Below are positions 7,238 to 44,842 of a stretch of DNA of 64,000 bases, in pieces; the first letter of the stretch is position 1, and the number at the start of each line of letters is the position of its first letter. Below the pieces are notes generated by a model. It was not told where the DNA came from. It searched no databases and worked only from the letters and a program-made list of their open reading frames with translations. The stretch is from positions 2,111 to 66,110 of the forward strand of contig JAUSIQ010000003.1 of assembly GCA_030647955.1 (NCBI GenBank), read 5' to 3'. The position numbers and the translations under genes are program-made. Source of the DNA: a bacterium. Lineage in GTDB: Bacteria; Patescibacteriota; Minisyncoccia; 2-02-FULL-40-12; IGHO2-12-FULL-4.

Positions 7238-8320
7238 ATGGATAAAAAAGGCTCAACCAGAATAGTTTATCATGATGTCTCGGTCTACACCGTCACTAAA
7301 ATAGTGTTGGTTTTGTTGTTTTTCGCTGCTTTGTATCTCTTGCGTGACATTATCTTTATCCTACTTTTTGCCATAATTATCGCCTCCGGAATTACCCCTT
7401 TTGCCAACTGGTTAGACCAGAAAAAATTCCCTCGTATTCTGGGAGTTTTAATTCTCTATCTCTCTCTTTTTGCTTTGGCTCTTTTCTTGCTTTCTTTGGT
7501 AGTGCCTTTTGTGACCGGAGAACTGAACCAGCTCATCAAAGATCTGCCGCGTTTTATCAATCAGGTTTCGAGCTCTCTGGAAAAAGCGCAGGAGAGTTCC
7601 AGTCGGTATGTGGATCTCTTTAGTGAGATCCAAAACCTACTAGACACTTCTGCTGGTTATTTGCAGGCCTCCTCGCAATCAGCCTTTAACTTTGTGATTA
7701 GTATCTTTGGTGGACTATTTTCTTTCTTTGCCGTTATCGTCTTATCCTTTTATCTCTCCGTGATGCGAGGAGGTATTGAAAGTTTCATCCGTTCAATTGT
7801 CCCCAAGGAATACGAAGCGGAAGTGCTCAATGTCTGGCGTCGTTCGGAGAAGAAAGTTGGCAAGTGGCTGCAGGGACAGTTACTTTTGGCTTTGGTAGTG
7901 GGCTTGACAGTGTACGTGACCCTCTCGATTATGGGTATTAAGTTTGCTCTATTGCTTGGTATTGTGGCGATGGTTTTGGAGTTAGTACCGAATGTTGGAC
8001 CAGTACTGGCGGCTATTCCGGCGGTGATCTTAGCTTTTACGCAATCAACGACTTTAGGGATTTGGGTGGTAGTGGCTTATGTGATTATTCAGCAGTTGGA
8101 AAACCATGTCCTAGTGCCGATTGTGATGGGTCGCGCGGTAGGGCTTAATCCGGTGGTGGTAATCTTGGCCTTATTGATCGGTTTCCACTTGGCTGGGATT
8201 GTTGGGATGATTTTATCGGTCCCAGTAGCGGCAATTATCGTCGAAATTCTAGATGAATTTTCTAAACATCGCTACCATGCGGGAACGGAAGTAGTAACGC
8301 CGGAGAGCAACAATGGCTAA
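7238..8320 (+). CDS. AI-2E family transporter (PerM/UPF0118) membrane protein
   Basis: Multi-TM protein with the conserved C-terminal region ...ELVPNVGPVLAAIPAV...QQLENHVLVPIVMG. Confidence 0.7.
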   Translation: MDKKGSTRIVYHDVSVYTVTKIVLVLLFFAALYLLRDIIFILLFAIIIASGITPFANWLDQKKFPRILGVLILYLSLFALALFLLSLVVPFVTGELNQLIKDLPRFINQVSSSLEKAQESSSRYVDLFSEIQNLLDTSAGYLQASSQSAFNFVISIFGGLFSFFAVIVLSFYLSVMRGGIESFIRSIVPKEYEAEVLNVWRRSEKKVGKWLQGQLLLALVVGLTVYVTLSIMGIKFALLLGIVAMVLELVPNVGPVLAAIPAVILAFTQSTTLGIWVVVAYVIIQQLENHVLVPIVMGRAVGLNPVVVILALLIGFHLAGIVGMILSVPVAAIIVEILDEFSKHRYHAGTEVVTPESNNG

Positions 8321-9014
8321 GCTTTTCATCATCGCGACACCTATTGGCAACCTCGAAGATTTGACCCTTCGAGGTTTGCGCATTTTAGGGGAAGTCGATG
8401 GAATTATTGCCGAGGATACACGCGTCACCCAAAAACTTCTCGAACATTACGGAATTAAAAAATCTCTTTATACCTTCCATCAGCACAGCTTGGAGAAAGA
8501 AACAGAAAAGATTGCGCGTCTTTTGGAAGAGGGAAAAAATCTGGCATTAGTAACCGATGCCGGGACGCCGGGGATCTCTGATCCGGGCGGAAAATTAATT
8601 GAAGATTTATTAAAAACTATGCCGGATCTGGAAATTATTCCGATCCCAGGACCGAATGCAGCGATTACCGCTTTAAGCGTAGCCGGTTTTCCGGCCGATC
8701 ATTTTCTGTTTTTGGGCTTCCCTCCGCACAAAAAAGGACGGCAAACTTTTTTTAGAGAAATGACTGAAGCTGAACCGACTATTGTCTTTTATGAATCGAC
8801 GCACCGTATCCTCAAAGCTTTGGAGCAGATGAGCGCTTTGGAAAATTTACGAGAACGTCCAATCGTTGTTTTGCGCGAATTAACTAAAAAGTTTGAAACA
8901 ATTTATCGTGGCACCGCCGCCGAGATTTTAGCGAAACTTCAGCAGGAAGGTCCGCGCGGAGAGTTTGTGGTTGTTATCGGACCAGTCAAAATTTTAAAAC
9001 AAAAAGCAGCTTAA
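8313..9014 (+). CDS. rsmI: 16S rRNA (cytidine1402-2'-O)-methyltransferase RsmI
   Basis: N-terminal FIIATPIGNLEDLTLRGLRIL...IAEDTR, typical of RsmI / tetrapyrrole-methylase fold. Confidence 0.8.
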   Translation: MAKLFIIATPIGNLEDLTLRGLRILGEVDGIIAEDTRVTQKLLEHYGIKKSLYTFHQHSLEKETEKIARLLEEGKNLALVTDAGTPGISDPGGKLIEDLLKTMPDLEIIPIPGPNAAITALSVAGFPADHFLFLGFPPHKKGRQTFFREMTEAEPTIVFYESTHRILKALEQMSALENLRERPIVVLRELTKKFETIYRGTAAEILAKLQQEGPRGEFVVVIGPVKILKQKAA

Positions 9015-9952
9015 ATAAGCTGCTCGATAATTGAAGATATTTTTTCTCCATCTTCTTTGGTACCGGTTATCACCATGCGGCGATGCTCGATTTCTGGTGG
9101 AAGTACAAACTGCTCTACTGTCCGAAGCTGATCCAGCCATTGCGATTTCGGGACTTGGCGGCGCCGAAGATTGTTTATCAGGACATGGCGATTGGCAGGA
9201 ACCAGTAAGATGATGGTGAGATTTATCTCATACCGCCGTGCGTAAAGAGCCGAAGCTCCTTTGGGCGTTAGGGCGAATATTCCGGAGCTGTCCTTTAGGA
9301 TAGCTCGAATATCTTTCATATTGGAGCCATAATATTCTCCTCGAAAAGAATCATGCTCAGCAAAAGCTCCGGCCTTAATCTGTGATTCGAAAAAATCTCG
9401 AGCGACAAAATTATAGGAGGACATCTCTTCTTCTCGGTTGTGCTCTCGTAATCGACGCGTCGTAGTATTTTTTACTCGACGAATCTTGCTGGGCAGAGTG
9501 TTGAGGAGCCAGTTCATCCAATAAGTTTTTCCGATAGCGGTTGGCCCCACTAAGGCAATCAGGTGGTGAGGTCCGCGAACTTGTGCCAGAAGATCACCAA
9601 ATTCTGGCTGCATATTTTTATAATACAGATACCATTCAGGATCAAAGCTAAGATCGATGCGTAATTCTTGACCGGTTTGAATGGCTTGTTTCAGTTCGTT
9701 CATCGCTCCGGCGGAGATCCCAAAAACTCCGGAAGCGTCACAGATGGCCTGATATTTAAGCATAAACTTTAAGGTACCTTCTCGGCCTAAGGACCCCCCT
9801 TCAAAATCTCGATACGGACCGGCATCGAAGGGAATAGTGGGGGCGTATCCCCAGCTACGCACTTTTTCCCGAATGCGTTCAATGTGTTCCGGCCCATAGG
9901 GATCAGATAAAAAACGAGTGGGCATAATACAGTACATAATTTTCCCGGCCAT
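9011..9952 (-). CDS. Two-domain protein: N-terminal nucleoside 2-deoxyribosyltransferase/DNPH1-like domain fused to a C-terminal guanylate-kinase-like P-loop kinase
   Basis: C-terminal domain has P-loop GPTAIGKT and a TTTRRLREHNREEE...YNFV segment resembling the Gmk TTR..R.GE..G.DY.FV motif. N-terminal domain has a GxSxGxxxELxxAxxxG pattern (ISAGAMNELKQAIQTG) like NDT-family proteins. Confidence 0.45.
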   Translation of the reverse strand: MAGKIMYCIMPTRFLSDPYGPEHIERIREKVRSWGYAPTIPFDAGPYRDFEGGSLGREGTLKFMLKYQAICDASGVFGISAGAMNELKQAIQTGQELRIDLSFDPEWYLYYKNMQPEFGDLLAQVRGPHHLIALVGPTAIGKTYWMNWLLNTLPSKIRRVKNTTTRRLREHNREEEMSSYNFVARDFFESQIKAGAFAEHDSFRGEYYGSNMKDIRAILKDSSGIFALTPKGASALYARRYEINLTIILLVPANRHVLINNLRRRQVPKSQWLDQLRTVEQFVLPPEIEHRRMVITGTKEDGEKISSIIEQLI

Positions 9953-10016
9953 GCTTCTCCTAATTTTTAAAGAATCATAGTATCGAGCATAATTTTTATT
10001 CGGAACCTTGTCATCG

Positions 10017-10062: not shown

Positions 10063-11625
10063 ATGTCCAATAAATATTTTATTACAACTGCGATTCCGTA
10101 TGTAAATGCTAACCCGCATCTGGGCCATGCTTTAGAATTGGTGCAAGGCGATGCTTTAGCGCGGTATCAGCACAATCTAGGAAAAGAAGTCTGGTTTCTG
10201 AATGGCACCGACGAAAATGCCTTGAAAAATGTGCAGTCGGCGGAAAAAGCCGGAGAAGAAGTTAGGCCATTTGTGGATCGCTACGCGGAAACTTTCAGAA
10301 AACTTAGCAAGACCCTCCATATTTCTAATGATGATTTTATCCGCACCACCGAAGAGCGGCATGTTAAAGGTGCGCAAAAACTTTGGCAGGCGTGTGCCGC
10401 GGCCGGAGATATTTATAAAAAGAAATACAAAGGGCTTTACTGTGTGGGCTGTGAAACTTTTTACACCGAAAAAGATTTATTGAATGGCCTTTGTCCTGAA
10501 CATAAAACGAAGCCGGAGGAAATCGAAGAAGAAAATTATTTCTTTAAGCTCGCGAAATATCAAAAAGAAATTTACAAATTAATTAAAAGCGATGAGCTGA
10601 AAATTATTCCTTCGTCCAAGAAAAACGAATTACTTTCTTTCATTGATCAAGGTTTGGAAGATTTTAGTATTTCACGCAGCCGAGAAAGGGCTAAGGATTG
10701 GGGTATTCCGGTTCCGGGAGACGACTCCCAGATTATTTACGTTTGGTTCGATGCTCTGTCGAATTACATTAATGCCATTGGTTACGGAACGGACGAGGCG
10801 AGGTTCAAAGCTTGGTGGCAGGAGAATTTAAATACCGCTCACGTGATTGGGAAGGGCATTACTCGATTTCATGCTATCTACTGGCCGGGTATGCTTTTAT
10901 CGGCAGGGTTGGCTTTGCCTAAAACAATTTATGTTCACGGCTATTTGACGATCGACGGAGAAAAAATCTCCAAGTCTTTGGGTAATGTGATCGATCCGTT
11001 TGAAGTGGTTAAAAAATACGGAGTTGATCCGGTGCGATATTTCTTATTGCGGGAAATTCCTTCTGGGGAAGATGGCGATTTCTCTTACAAGAAACTGGAG
11101 GACCGTTATCAGGCGGATTTAGCCAACGGGCTGGGTAATTTGGTACAGAGAGTTCTGACGCTGATCGAGAATGGTTTACTGGGTGAGGTGAACTATCTAA
11201 GTAATTTGGAGGACTTGGCTGTGCAGGAAGCGATTGTTAAAAGCAGAAAAAAATATGACGAAAGCTTTGAGGATTTTCGTTTACACGAGGCTTTGGGAGC
11301 AATATTTGATCTAGTCGGCTTTGCAAATAGCTATGTCAATGAGCACAAGCCTTGGGAGCTGGTTAAAATTCACCCCGTCAAATCCAGCGAAGCTGGTGCG
11401 CCAAAGGCGCAATTTGACGGGGCAAGCCCCGAACACTTCTTGAAAGTAATGATTAATCTGGTCAGGTTGAATTTAGAGATTGCGTTGTGGCTAAAACCAT
11501 TTTTACCGGAAACGGCCGATAAGATTTTAGAATCATTTGGATTCACGGGGAAAGATTTAGATCACCTTGATCATCAGAAATTAGTTATTAAAAAAGGAGC
11601 CGGACTCTTTCCGCGTCTAGGATAA
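10063..11625 (+). CDS. metG: Methionyl-tRNA synthetase (short form)
   Basis: HIGH-type motif PYVNANPHLGHA, KMSKS-type KISKSLGN, zinc knuckle CVGCETF...CPEH. Confidence 0.9.
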   Translation: MSNKYFITTAIPYVNANPHLGHALELVQGDALARYQHNLGKEVWFLNGTDENALKNVQSAEKAGEEVRPFVDRYAETFRKLSKTLHISNDDFIRTTEERHVKGAQKLWQACAAAGDIYKKKYKGLYCVGCETFYTEKDLLNGLCPEHKTKPEEIEEENYFFKLAKYQKEIYKLIKSDELKIIPSSKKNELLSFIDQGLEDFSISRSRERAKDWGIPVPGDDSQIIYVWFDALSNYINAIGYGTDEARFKAWWQENLNTAHVIGKGITRFHAIYWPGMLLSAGLALPKTIYVHGYLTIDGEKISKSLGNVIDPFEVVKKYGVDPVRYFLLREIPSGEDGDFSYKKLEDRYQADLANGLGNLVQRVLTLIENGLLGEVNYLSNLEDLAVQEAIVKSRKKYDESFEDFRLHEALGAIFDLVGFANSYVNEHKPWELVKIHPVKSSEAGAPKAQFDGASPEHFLKVMINLVRLNLEIALWLKPFLPETADKILESFGFTGKDLDHLDHQKLVIKKGAGLFPRLG

Positions 11626-20293: not shown

Positions 20294-20376
20294 GTGCTCG
20301 AGGTGGGACTTGAACCCACAAGGTCGTGAGACCACACGATTTTGAGTCGTGCGTGTATGCCATTCCACCACTCGAG
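20294..20376 (-). tRNA. tRNA-Leu (anticodon CAA), type II with long variable arm, CCA not encoded
   Basis: Reverse complement folds as GCTCGAG/CTCGAGC acceptor, anticodon loop CUCAAAA, variable arm TGGTCTCACGACCTTGT, T-loop GGGTTCAAGTCCC. Confidence 0.85.
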
Positions 20377-20634
20377 CAATATTAATGCATTTTAGCATAT
20401 TTTTGACAATTTTCAACTTGTGAGGGCATTGTAAGAAGCACTATGTTCCGCTACAATTAAGATACTTAACAGCGATTCCAATTAATATCTCGGCGTCTTA
20501 ATCGGCATCATCAAGCTTCGCTTGATGGCCGATATCCGCCGACCGTAAAATTGCTCCAAAGAAGCAAATCTCTCGGAAGCATAAGGGACTTCTTTACCGC
20601 AATTTTACTGATATCAATTTGAACCTTCGACGTC

Positions 20635-44704: not shown

Positions 44705-44771
44705 GACTTTTATTTATTTATTATCAATAAACTATCATTTAATGAGTGAAATGTGAATTCTTTGCAATTTG

Positions 44772-44842
44772 TCGGGCTGCCGAGATTCGAACTCGGACTA
44801 AATCCACCCCATGGACTCGTGCTGCCGTTACACTACAGCCCG
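44772..44842 (-). tRNA. tRNA-Pro (anticodon GGG)
   Basis: Reverse complement folds with acceptor CGGGCTG/CAGCCCG, D-stem GTGT/GCAC, anticodon loop AUGGGGU, T-arm CCGAG-TTCGAAT-CTCGG, discriminator A. Confidence 0.75.

Follow-up and report, generated by a model that had tools for sequence, protein, structure and literature searches.

What is the function of a protein in which a fold resembling nucleoside 2-deoxyribosyltransferase (NDT) and DNPH1 is joined to a guanylate kinase-like (Gmk-like) domain? The question is raised by a gene at positions 9011..9952 of a 64,000-nucleotide stretch of a patescibacterial genome (contig JAUSIQ010000003.1, positions 2,111 to 66,110, assembly GCA_030647955.1), referred to here as the window. 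The gene and all of its features given below lie on the minus strand. The genomes of Patescibacteria (the candidate phyla radiation, CPR) and DPANN archaea are tiny and for the most part encode no de novo synthesis of nucleotides. Both groups are thought to feed on host-derived or environmental nucleotides or DNA, and only some of the enzymes that process this scavenged material are known. Based on the results presented here, we give roughly an even chance to the reading that the protein is a constitutive housekeeping enzyme of Paceibacteria, a bifunctional one that salvages (deoxy)purine nucleotides.

Results

A conserved two-domain fusion in Patescibacteria

The gene is an open reading frame (ORF) of 313 codons, running from an ATG start to a TAA stop (9011-9013), and its product is 100% identical to the NCBI entry 'MAG: hypothetical protein Q7S32_00240 [bacterium]'. 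The motifs by which a sequence-only reading of the window had described this protein are all present, namely MYCIMP (residues 6-11), G78-x-S80-x-G82-x3-E86-L87-x2-A90-x3-G94, GPTAIGKT (136-143), TTTR (163-166) and YNFV (180-183). Besides the window protein, 53 homologue clusters were identified, of which about 48 are full-length proteins with both domains at 34-50% identity. The family alignment used throughout this study comprises 44 sequences including the window protein. Scanning a single genome for each species yielded 17 loci, all in Patescibacteria (Harrisonbacteria, Vogelbacteria, Yanofskybacteria and Paceibacteria), and both domains reside in one gene at 14 of these loci. Since about 48 full-length clusters and 14 species genomes carry both domains, we conclude that the fusion is a real and conserved architecture. 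The sequence-only reading had allowed for two separate genes and a sequencing frameshift at their junction. A frameshift or mis-assembly is excluded as the origin of a fusion that recurs in more than 44 clusters and in 14 genomes. AlphaFold modelled the full-length protein with a predicted local distance difference test (pLDDT) score of 94.2 and a predicted template-modelling (pTM) score of 0.87, and the relative placement of the two domains is therefore confident. Homologues are annotated in the databases as 'hypothetical' or 'guanylate kinase'.

One orthologue, from Candidatus Vogelbacteria (L022:9956-10930; JACRKD010000010.1), is broken by two in-frame stops, a TGA at the codon of the invariant Trp107 (FDPE-TGA) and a TAG at the codon of the invariant Glu199. 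This interrupted copy could be a pseudogene, a product of sequencing errors or a case of recoding.

An N-terminal domain with the NDT/DNPH1 fold

The N-terminal domain (hereafter N-domain; residues 1-127, 9572..9952) was modelled by AlphaFold as a four-stranded α/β sandwich of the flavodoxin-like NDT type (pLDDT 93.1, pTM 0.87). The best match of this model in a Foldseek search of the PDB is the NDT structure 8pqt (E 4.7e-4), and further NDT structures, 2a0k from T. brucei, 6qai, 6evs and 7o62, fall within an E range of 4.7e-4 to 1e-2. Human DNPH1 (8rpt/8qhq) is matched over about 100 residues with a root-mean-square deviation of 3.1-3.5 Å, and BcmB (4jen), a CMP N-glycosidase, is also among the top PDB matches, which have a probability of 1.00 and TM scores of 0.53-0.64. 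The best matches among the BFVD models were NDT-like, DUF7768 and DUF4406 proteins of phages, some of which are joined to dATP/dGTP diphosphohydrolase domains. The NDT/DNPH1-like domain that the sequence-only reading had proposed therefore holds at the level of fold, and the model matches NDT and DNPH1 rather than an unrelated fold, which that reading had also considered; its estimate of about 150 residues is shortened to about 127 by the secondary structure of the AlphaFold model.

Sequence profiles place the N-domain family less firmly. The DUF7768 model (PF24963) matches 12 of the 44 fused members, the best at E 6e-5 and one at 26.5 bits, just over the 26-bit cutoff, and several stand-alone relatives also exceed this cutoff (P0088 at 29.0, P0107 at 26.6 and L040 at 30.1 bits). 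The phage model phrog_355, 'nucleoside 2-deoxyribosyltransferase', matches one family member at 4.5e-8, and the best value for PF05014 is only E 0.15, in one relative. Comparison by hhalign with the canonical DUF7768 domain of a Harrisonbacteria paralogue, described below, was weak (E 0.033) and placed the Glu out of register. The N-domain family is best regarded as a divergent sister group of DUF7768, rather than a clear member.

Twelve residues of the N-domain are invariant or nearly so (Y7, P11, R13, P38, E51, R57, G78, S80, G82, E86, D104 and W107), and in the AlphaFold model all of them sit at the C-terminal ends of β-strands. Among these, E51, R57, G78, G82 and E86 are invariant, Y7 is invariant or nearly so, and S80 and R13 are conserved at ≥90%. 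Two segments share their spacing with DNPH1. The first, Y7-C-I-M-P11-T-R13 (9914..9934), consists of strand β1 and the following loop, and its Y7(+6)R13 corresponds to Y24(+6)R30 of DNPH1. The second, G78-I-S80-A-G82-A-M-N-E86 (9695..9721), covers the loop after β3 and the start of helix 3 and holds a candidate phosphate-binding Ser/Gly pair and a candidate nucleophile Glu; here S80-x-G82-x3-E86 corresponds to S98-x-G100-x3-E104. The one segment that hhalign aligns to DNPH1, at a probability of 0.5-1.2%, is this S-x-G-x3-E stretch, with E86 opposite Glu104. In the model, Y7 (β1) and E86 (helix 3 after β3) would take up positions topologically equivalent to the Tyr and the nucleophile Glu of DNPH1. 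The invariant Glu51, in the β2-α2 loop, is a candidate general acid. Where the N-domain has Ser80, the NDT of L. leichmannii has Asp92, and this replacement points to nucleotides rather than nucleosides as substrates. In DNPH1, Glu104 is the nucleophile and receives a short hydrogen bond from Tyr24, and the 5'-phosphate is bound by the Ser98 hydroxyl together with the backbone at Gly100 and at residues 29-31 (PMC10483697, PMC10603095).

Such a pocket could serve a substrate other than a deoxynucleotide. The N-domain might act on another N-glycosidic or ribosyl substrate, with the kinase half serving for binding or regulation or acting on a non-guanine substrate. Candidate substrates are ribonucleotides (as for MilB, BcmB, LOG and PpnN), NAD+/ADP-ribose (as for TIR domains) and damaged or non-canonical deoxynucleoside monophosphates (dNMPs), in which case the protein would be a 'sanitiser' of the nucleotide pool. 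We consider this alternative unlikely. BcmB and TIR domains do occur among the Foldseek matches of lower rank, but the TIR matches are weak (E 0.005-0.1). Furthermore, Ser80 and Gly82 have their counterparts in the 5'-phosphate site of DNPH1, and the invariant Tyr7 is a deoxyribose signature, unlike the Phe that MilB has in its place, which goes with a preference for ribose rather than deoxyribose (PMC10603095).

The N-domain outside the fusion

A phmmer search with the N-domain against 1.84 billion representative proteins gave 71 matches, and an extended N-domain alignment run against a 5.8-billion-protein database gave at least nine proteins. A degenerate DNA pattern scan of metagenome contigs added 16 further stand-alone copies. 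Three long, repeat-rich proteins (P0068, P0097 and P0109), matched at E 1e-5 to 6e-12 through short repeated stretches, were rejected as homologues. Many of the N-domain proteins stand alone at 120-140 amino acids, including one from Nanoarchaeia (DPANN) and one from Patescibacteria, and the domain occurs only in CPR bacteria and DPANN archaea. On the evidence of the models, it may constitute a CPR/DPANN-specific branch of the NDT/DNPH1/DUF7768 fold. Two proteins, P0100 (245 amino acids) and P0104 (280 amino acids), are tandem pairs of N-domains, an arrangement that recalls the obligate dimers of NDT and DNPH1.

Several N-domain proteins are fused to, or encoded beside, proteins of nucleotide metabolism. 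In P0096 and P0105 the N-domain is fused to a phosphoribosyltransferase (PRTase), for which xanthine PRTase is the best model (7.8e-17) and hypoxanthine PRTase the next. One further fusion joins it to a flavin adenine dinucleotide (FAD)-dependent protein (PF21688). At L011:1751-4053, a fusion of the N-domain with a xanthine-PRTase-like domain is followed by an overlapping gene of the same FAD-dependent family, PF21688, and at L012:159-3391 a tight array of genes on one strand runs from an archaeal (d)CMP kinase (110 bits versus 102) through deoC (136 bits versus 117) to an N-domain-FAD protein. Stand-alone copies adjoin RdgB/HAM1 genes (146.7 bits versus 145.35) in two loci, and another copy (L007) diverges from a SLOG/LOG-like gene. 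Their other neighbours include an overlapping upstream NUDIX gene, an overlapping amidohydrolase gene of the MtaD/TRZ-ATZ type, a phosphorylase of the PNP/UDP family and HhH-GPD glycosylases; unrelated genes are also found among the neighbours of the metagenome copies. These fusions and gene neighbours lead us to favour a role in nucleotide salvage, which the sequence-only reading had judged plausible. Part of the same evidence also fits a different substrate, since house-cleaning neighbours such as HAM1 and NUDIX, together with the phage fusions of an NDT fold with dATP/dGTP diphosphohydrolases, would suit the removal of aberrant (d)NMPs, a task that human DNPH1 performs (PMC10603095).

Harrisonbacteria encode a second, very divergent fusion about 5 kb from the orthologue of the window gene (L005:1903-2835(-), L006:573-1499 and L020:4625-5551). 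It consists of a canonical DUF7768 domain (92.7 bits, 1.9e-26) and a different Gmk-like kinase, and the precomputed annotation of this paralogue already shows DUF7768 and Guanylate_kin. The second kinase keeps the three LID arginines, has lost both Asp residues of the D-x-D motif and carries Trp in place of the guanine-binding Glu, a replacement that counts in favour of the different-substrate alternative. Because this second fusion is unrelated to the first, an NDT-fold domain has joined a Gmk-fold kinase at least twice.

A divergent guanylate kinase-like domain

The C-terminal domain (residues 128-313; 9014..9571) has the P-loop guanylate kinase fold. PF00625 (Guanylate_kin) matches residues 131-270 at E 7.2e-14 (52.3 bits versus a gathering threshold of 25.2), and the family profile matches the yeast guanylate kinase 1gky at E 3e-24. 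With the whole-protein model, Foldseek recovers solved guanylate kinases (GMPK at E 1.8e-13), with TM scores to the targets of 0.75-0.80. The Gmk equivalog model TIGR03263 scores 59.7 bits, below its cutoff of 160.45. The guanylate kinase-like assignment of the sequence-only reading was thus borne out as to fold by PF00625 and by Foldseek at about 1e-13, with the qualification that the domain is divergent and that several canonical catalytic and specificity residues of Gmk are lost.

To assess these residues, the 44 sequences were mapped onto yeast 1GKY, with residue roles taken from PMC4325336 and from a 2025 study of human GMPK (PMC12297293). In the Walker A P-loop (G136-P-T-A-I-G141-K142-T143; 9524..9547), G136, G141 and K142 are invariant and T143 is present in 42 of the 44 sequences. 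The ligands of the GMP phosphate are kept in 42-44 of 44: R166 and R169, which belong to the nucleoside monophosphate (NMP)-binding segment K161-N162-T-T-T-R166-R-L-R169 (9446..9472), together with Y180 and Y208, correspond to yeast R38, R41, Y50 and Y78. E199, the equivalent of yeast E69, which is the ligand of guanine N1/N2 (PMC4325336, PMC12297293), is present in all 44 sequences, as is the LID arginine R265 (yeast R135), and the family census shows the equivalent of yeast S80 kept as S210. The family therefore retains the equivalents of human R41, R44 and E72 (yeast R38, R41 and E69), whose Ala mutants have no detectable activity (PMC12297293), as well as those of human Y53, Y81 and R137. 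Conservation of the catalytic Glu of NDT-like proteins, here the invariant E86 of the N-domain, and of these Arg and Tyr residues had been singled out by the sequence-only reading as worth checking, and the check was positive for both halves.

Other positions have been replaced. Yeast Ser34, at the guanine O6 and K+ site (PMC4325336, PMC12297293), is N162 in 44/44. Yeast D98 (human D101), a contact of the ribose hydroxyl and a water-mediated Mg2+ ligand, is Ala (A227) in 43/44, and yeast D100 (human D103), a guanine contact of minor effect in the human enzyme, is Thr (T229) in 44/44 (PMC12297293); the segment A227-L-T229-P-K-G-A233 (9254..9274) stands where Gmk has the canonical D-I-D-x-Q-G. 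Yeast R131 is Asn in 42/44 and the equivalent of human N171 is Thr, both being positions of ATP recognition (PMC12297293). Yeast R146, the counterpart of human R148, is hydrophobic or otherwise changed (Leu/Ser/Ile), and human R148A is strongly impaired (PMC12297293). In summary, the Glu alone is retained from the guanine-ring contact set Ser34/Glu69/Asp100, and R135 alone from the Mg-water Asp and the LID/ATP arginines R131/R135/R146. Judged by its sequence, the C-terminal half is no canonical Gmk but forms a Gmk-like subfamily of its own, in which the NTP site is intact, the NMP site is of the guanine type and the metal and donor region is remodelled.

These substitutions bear on both alternatives to the salvage enzyme that have to be weighed here. 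For a substrate other than a guanine nucleotide speak the missing guanine Asp and Ser, the missing Asp for the sugar hydroxyl and Mg2+ and the remodelled donor-site residues, but the main guanine determinant, Glu199, is invariant in the family. The second alternative is that the protein is the guanylate kinase of this lineage, its sole enzyme for the conversion of GMP to GDP, and that the N-domain is a non-catalytic module for oligomerisation or allosteric nucleotide sensing. We regard this as possible, if doubtful. A kinase of this kind would account for the invariance of the P-loop, the guanine Glu and the GMP-phosphate contacts, and for a monocistronic gene amid housekeeping genes, and it agrees with an N-domain whose homology to catalytic NDT and DNPH1 is not significant by sequence. 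Kinase-only members of the same Gmk-like subfamily occur in other Paceibacteria (L027:5217-5765, L028:4961-5521 and L029:7894-8430, from Paceibacterota and Yanofskybacteria), as would be expected if the kinase were the essential part; they score 173-232 bits against the family model, share the motifs K-N/T-T-T-T-R, L-T-P-x-G, R-N-x3-R-G and P-H, and have no N-domain gene in their loci. In addition, no Gmk-like ORF besides these fusions was found in about 485 kb comprising the window and the fetched related loci. The same 485 kb yielded no ORF resembling rpoZ, the neighbour that marks the canonical context of gmk, a result that favours neither side. According to one published report, Paceibacteria have an annotated guanylate kinase and Microgenomatia lack one, with the underlying protein unspecified there. 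The identity of the conserved residues tells against this alternative, as the invariant positions of the N-domain are Tyr, Ser-x-Gly and Glu at strand ends, which resembles an active-site pocket and not a surface patch. Moreover, an N-domain that is found alone, in tandem, fused to PRTase and FAD proteins and beside deoC, HAM1 and NUDIX genes fits an enzyme with a substrate of its own, and the kinase has lost residues canonical for Gmk, its score lying far under the Gmk equivalog cutoff.

Gene neighbourhood and expression signals

The fusion gene is monocistronic. It converges with rsmI (8313-9014; PDB RsmI match, E 6.5e-56) and diverges from metG (10063-11625; MetRS match, E 8e-130), beyond which lie a TatD-like gene and then leuS, both assigned by eye. 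In the relatives, neighbours are gatB and hisS-class genes, with a dTMP kinase and a NUDIX gene two to three genes off (L003), a ComEB-like dCMP deaminase and a tRNA-binding protein (L001), and, in another, proline dehydrogenase and the S12 ribosomal cluster. The setting is a housekeeping one in every locus compared, and the GC content is even, at about 0.44, throughout the window.

This setting has consequences for the other proposal of the sequence-only reading, that the protein belongs to an anti-phage defence or toxin system as an effector that depletes or modifies nucleotides. Domains of the NDT/TIR fold and kinase domains are generally known to occur in conflict systems. No defence-system protein model of PADLOC-DB was matched, however, and a tblastn search of phage genomes gave weak matches to the kinase domain only and no other homologues. 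Neighbours such as rsmI, metG, tatD, leuS, gatB and ribosomal protein genes, without a conserved partner gene, together with uniform composition and vertical conservation across Paceibacteria lineages at 34-50% identity, make a role in defence very improbable.

A Shine-Dalgarno sequence, AGGAG (9957-9961), was read 4 nt ahead of the ATG, and a promoter scan found a sigma-70-like match at 10014..9986, which is a consensus match only. A terminator-like hairpin with a 9-bp stem and a T-rich tail (9004..9025) lies over the convergent, overlapping stops of the fusion gene and rsmI. The stops of rsmI (plus strand, ending at 9014) and of the fusion gene (minus strand, 9011-9013) overlap inside a perfect 9-bp inverted repeat, AGCAGCTTA / TAAGCTGCT, and the hairpin looks like a convergent terminator shared by the two genes. 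The RNA genes found in the 64 kb are tRNA-Leu(CAA) at 20294-20377 and tRNA-Pro(GGG) at 44771-44842, both on the minus strand, with no further Rfam matches in the window at gathering thresholds.

Discussion

For the salvage enzyme that we favour, we infer catalysis by both domains, their substrates, a preference for deoxy sugars and a coupling between the two halves as follows. The N-domain would bind a 2'-deoxynucleoside 5'-monophosphate and break its N-glycosidic bond by the retaining double displacement of DNPH1 and NDT; a retaining covalent mechanism is a hallmark of that family (PMC10483697). Glu86 would attack C1', with Tyr7 tuning and positioning it. The 5'-phosphate would be held by the hydroxyl of Ser80, the backbone of Gly82 and the loop after β1 (Thr12/Arg13), and the leaving base would be protonated by an acid of the β2-α2 loop, most likely the invariant Glu51. 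The covalent Glu86-deoxyribosyl-phosphate could then be resolved by water, giving base and deoxyribose 5-phosphate, or by another base, giving base exchange. The preference for deoxy sugars is suggested by the invariant Tyr7 and by the loss of the ribose-hydroxyl Asp in the kinase.

The kinase half would bind a guanine-like (d)NMP, the phosphate through R166, R169, Y180 and Y208 and the base through E199, N162 and S210, and would transfer to it a phosphate from an NTP bound at the P-loop and R265. The two halves could then decide the fate of scavenged nucleotides of the (d)GMP type between phosphorylation toward (d)GDP and liberation of the base, which a phosphoribosyltransferase could re-use. 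Deoxyribose 5-phosphate would be the substrate of the DeoC enzyme encoded beside one homologue, and the released purine that of the PRTase fused in others. CPR bacteria have been proposed to gain nucleotides from DNA that they take up (PMC9166423), which would give such a salvage enzyme a rationale.

A number of observations weigh against this interpretation. Within the N-domain of the window protein, sequence searches of Pfam, NCBIfam and the PDB gave no match, not even PF24963 at E≤10, and a search of PDB sequences with the N-domain profile (hmmsearch) returned no NDT. Alignment of N-domain profiles by hhalign to human DNPH1 and to a 12-sequence DNPH1 alignment gave probabilities of 0.5% and 1.2%, the comparison profile consisting of vertebrate sequences only and being poor in diversity. 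Because homology by sequence profile is not significant, the link of the N-domain to DNPH1 rests on fold, on the marginal DUF7768 and phrog_355 matches of relatives and on motif spacing. Additionally, the family has no conserved acid at the helix-2 position equivalent to Asp80 of DNPH1 and Asp72 of NDT. The kinase lacks the equivalents of the Mg-water Asp (human D101), of R148 and of the ATP-recognition residues R133 and N171, so that it may be a slow enzyme, depend on a different phosphate donor or serve as a binding module. The kinase-only proteins indicate that the kinase can work without the N-domain. Among the loci of relatives that were compared, no conserved operon or partner was found around the fusion gene. 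The two proposed reactions would not be consecutive in one pathway, and the logic of the fusion is one that we infer. Finally, the literature holds no enzymology on any member of the family.

A bolder interpretation takes the N-domain as an unrecognised CPR/DPANN enzyme family that strips the base from dNMPs of scavenged DNA. With a xanthine/guanine PRTase-like domain, a Gmk-like kinase, DeoC and HAM1/NUDIX as partners, it would form a 'deoxy-to-ribo' route of purine conversion or sanitising, in which the Gmk-like half is remodelled and has a non-canonical metal and donor site. We offer this proposal tentatively and think it rather unlikely as a whole; if true, organisms that cannot make purines de novo could use the route to restore their GTP pools and burn the deoxyribose.

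Both folds are already known, and relatives of the N-domain are covered by a DUF in Pfam; what is undescribed is a subfamily of N-domains that is specific to CPR bacteria and DPANN archaea, carries a set of DNPH1-like motifs and is fused to salvage enzymes. It offers a definite and testable candidate for a salvage or sanitising step that is missing from the picture of Patescibacteria and DPANN archaea. The C-terminal half represents a naturally occurring guanylate kinase variant without residues deemed important in the human enzyme, and automatic 'guanylate kinase' calls in metabolic reconstructions of CPR bacteria may rest on a non-canonical protein. Overall, our results provide a well-supported lead on nucleotide scavenging in ultra-small symbionts, and no new principle.

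Among characterised enzymes, DNPH1/Rcl, a 2'-deoxynucleoside 5'-phosphate N-hydrolase of the PF05014 superfamily, shares with the N-domain the α/β fold, the Tyr of β1 with an Arg six residues on, and the Ser-x-Gly-x3-Glu that follows β3. Unlike DNPH1, the N-domain has only four strands and a differing C-terminal helical pair with a conserved F-D-P-E-W motif, and residues equivalent to the catalytic Asp80 and the swapped Ser128' cannot be identified in it. It also differs in being fused to a kinase, in its restriction to CPR bacteria and DPANN archaea and in having no significant profile similarity to DNPH1. NDT/PDT enzymes (8PQT, 2A0K and 1F8X) gave the best Foldseek E-values for the N-domain and have the Tyr and Glu in common with it. 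Of all sequence models, DUF7768 (PF24963) and phrog_355 alone detect the N-domain family, the window protein itself going undetected; in the literature, DUF7768 is mentioned in no paper, and neither is an NDT-guanylate kinase fusion.

A functional analogue is provided by the PpnN/LOG nucleosidases, which also have an α/β fold and cut NMPs to base and ribose 5-phosphate at the GMP branch point; they come from another family (PF03641/PF18306), have ribonucleotides as substrates and lack a fused kinase. Gmk/GUK1 (TIGR03263, PF00625) shares with the C-terminal half the fold, the P-loop and R38, R41, Y50, E69, Y78, S80 and R135 in yeast numbering. Unlike Gmk/GUK1, the window protein bears an additional N-terminal domain and has S34, D98, D100, R131, R146 and the equivalent of human N171 replaced.

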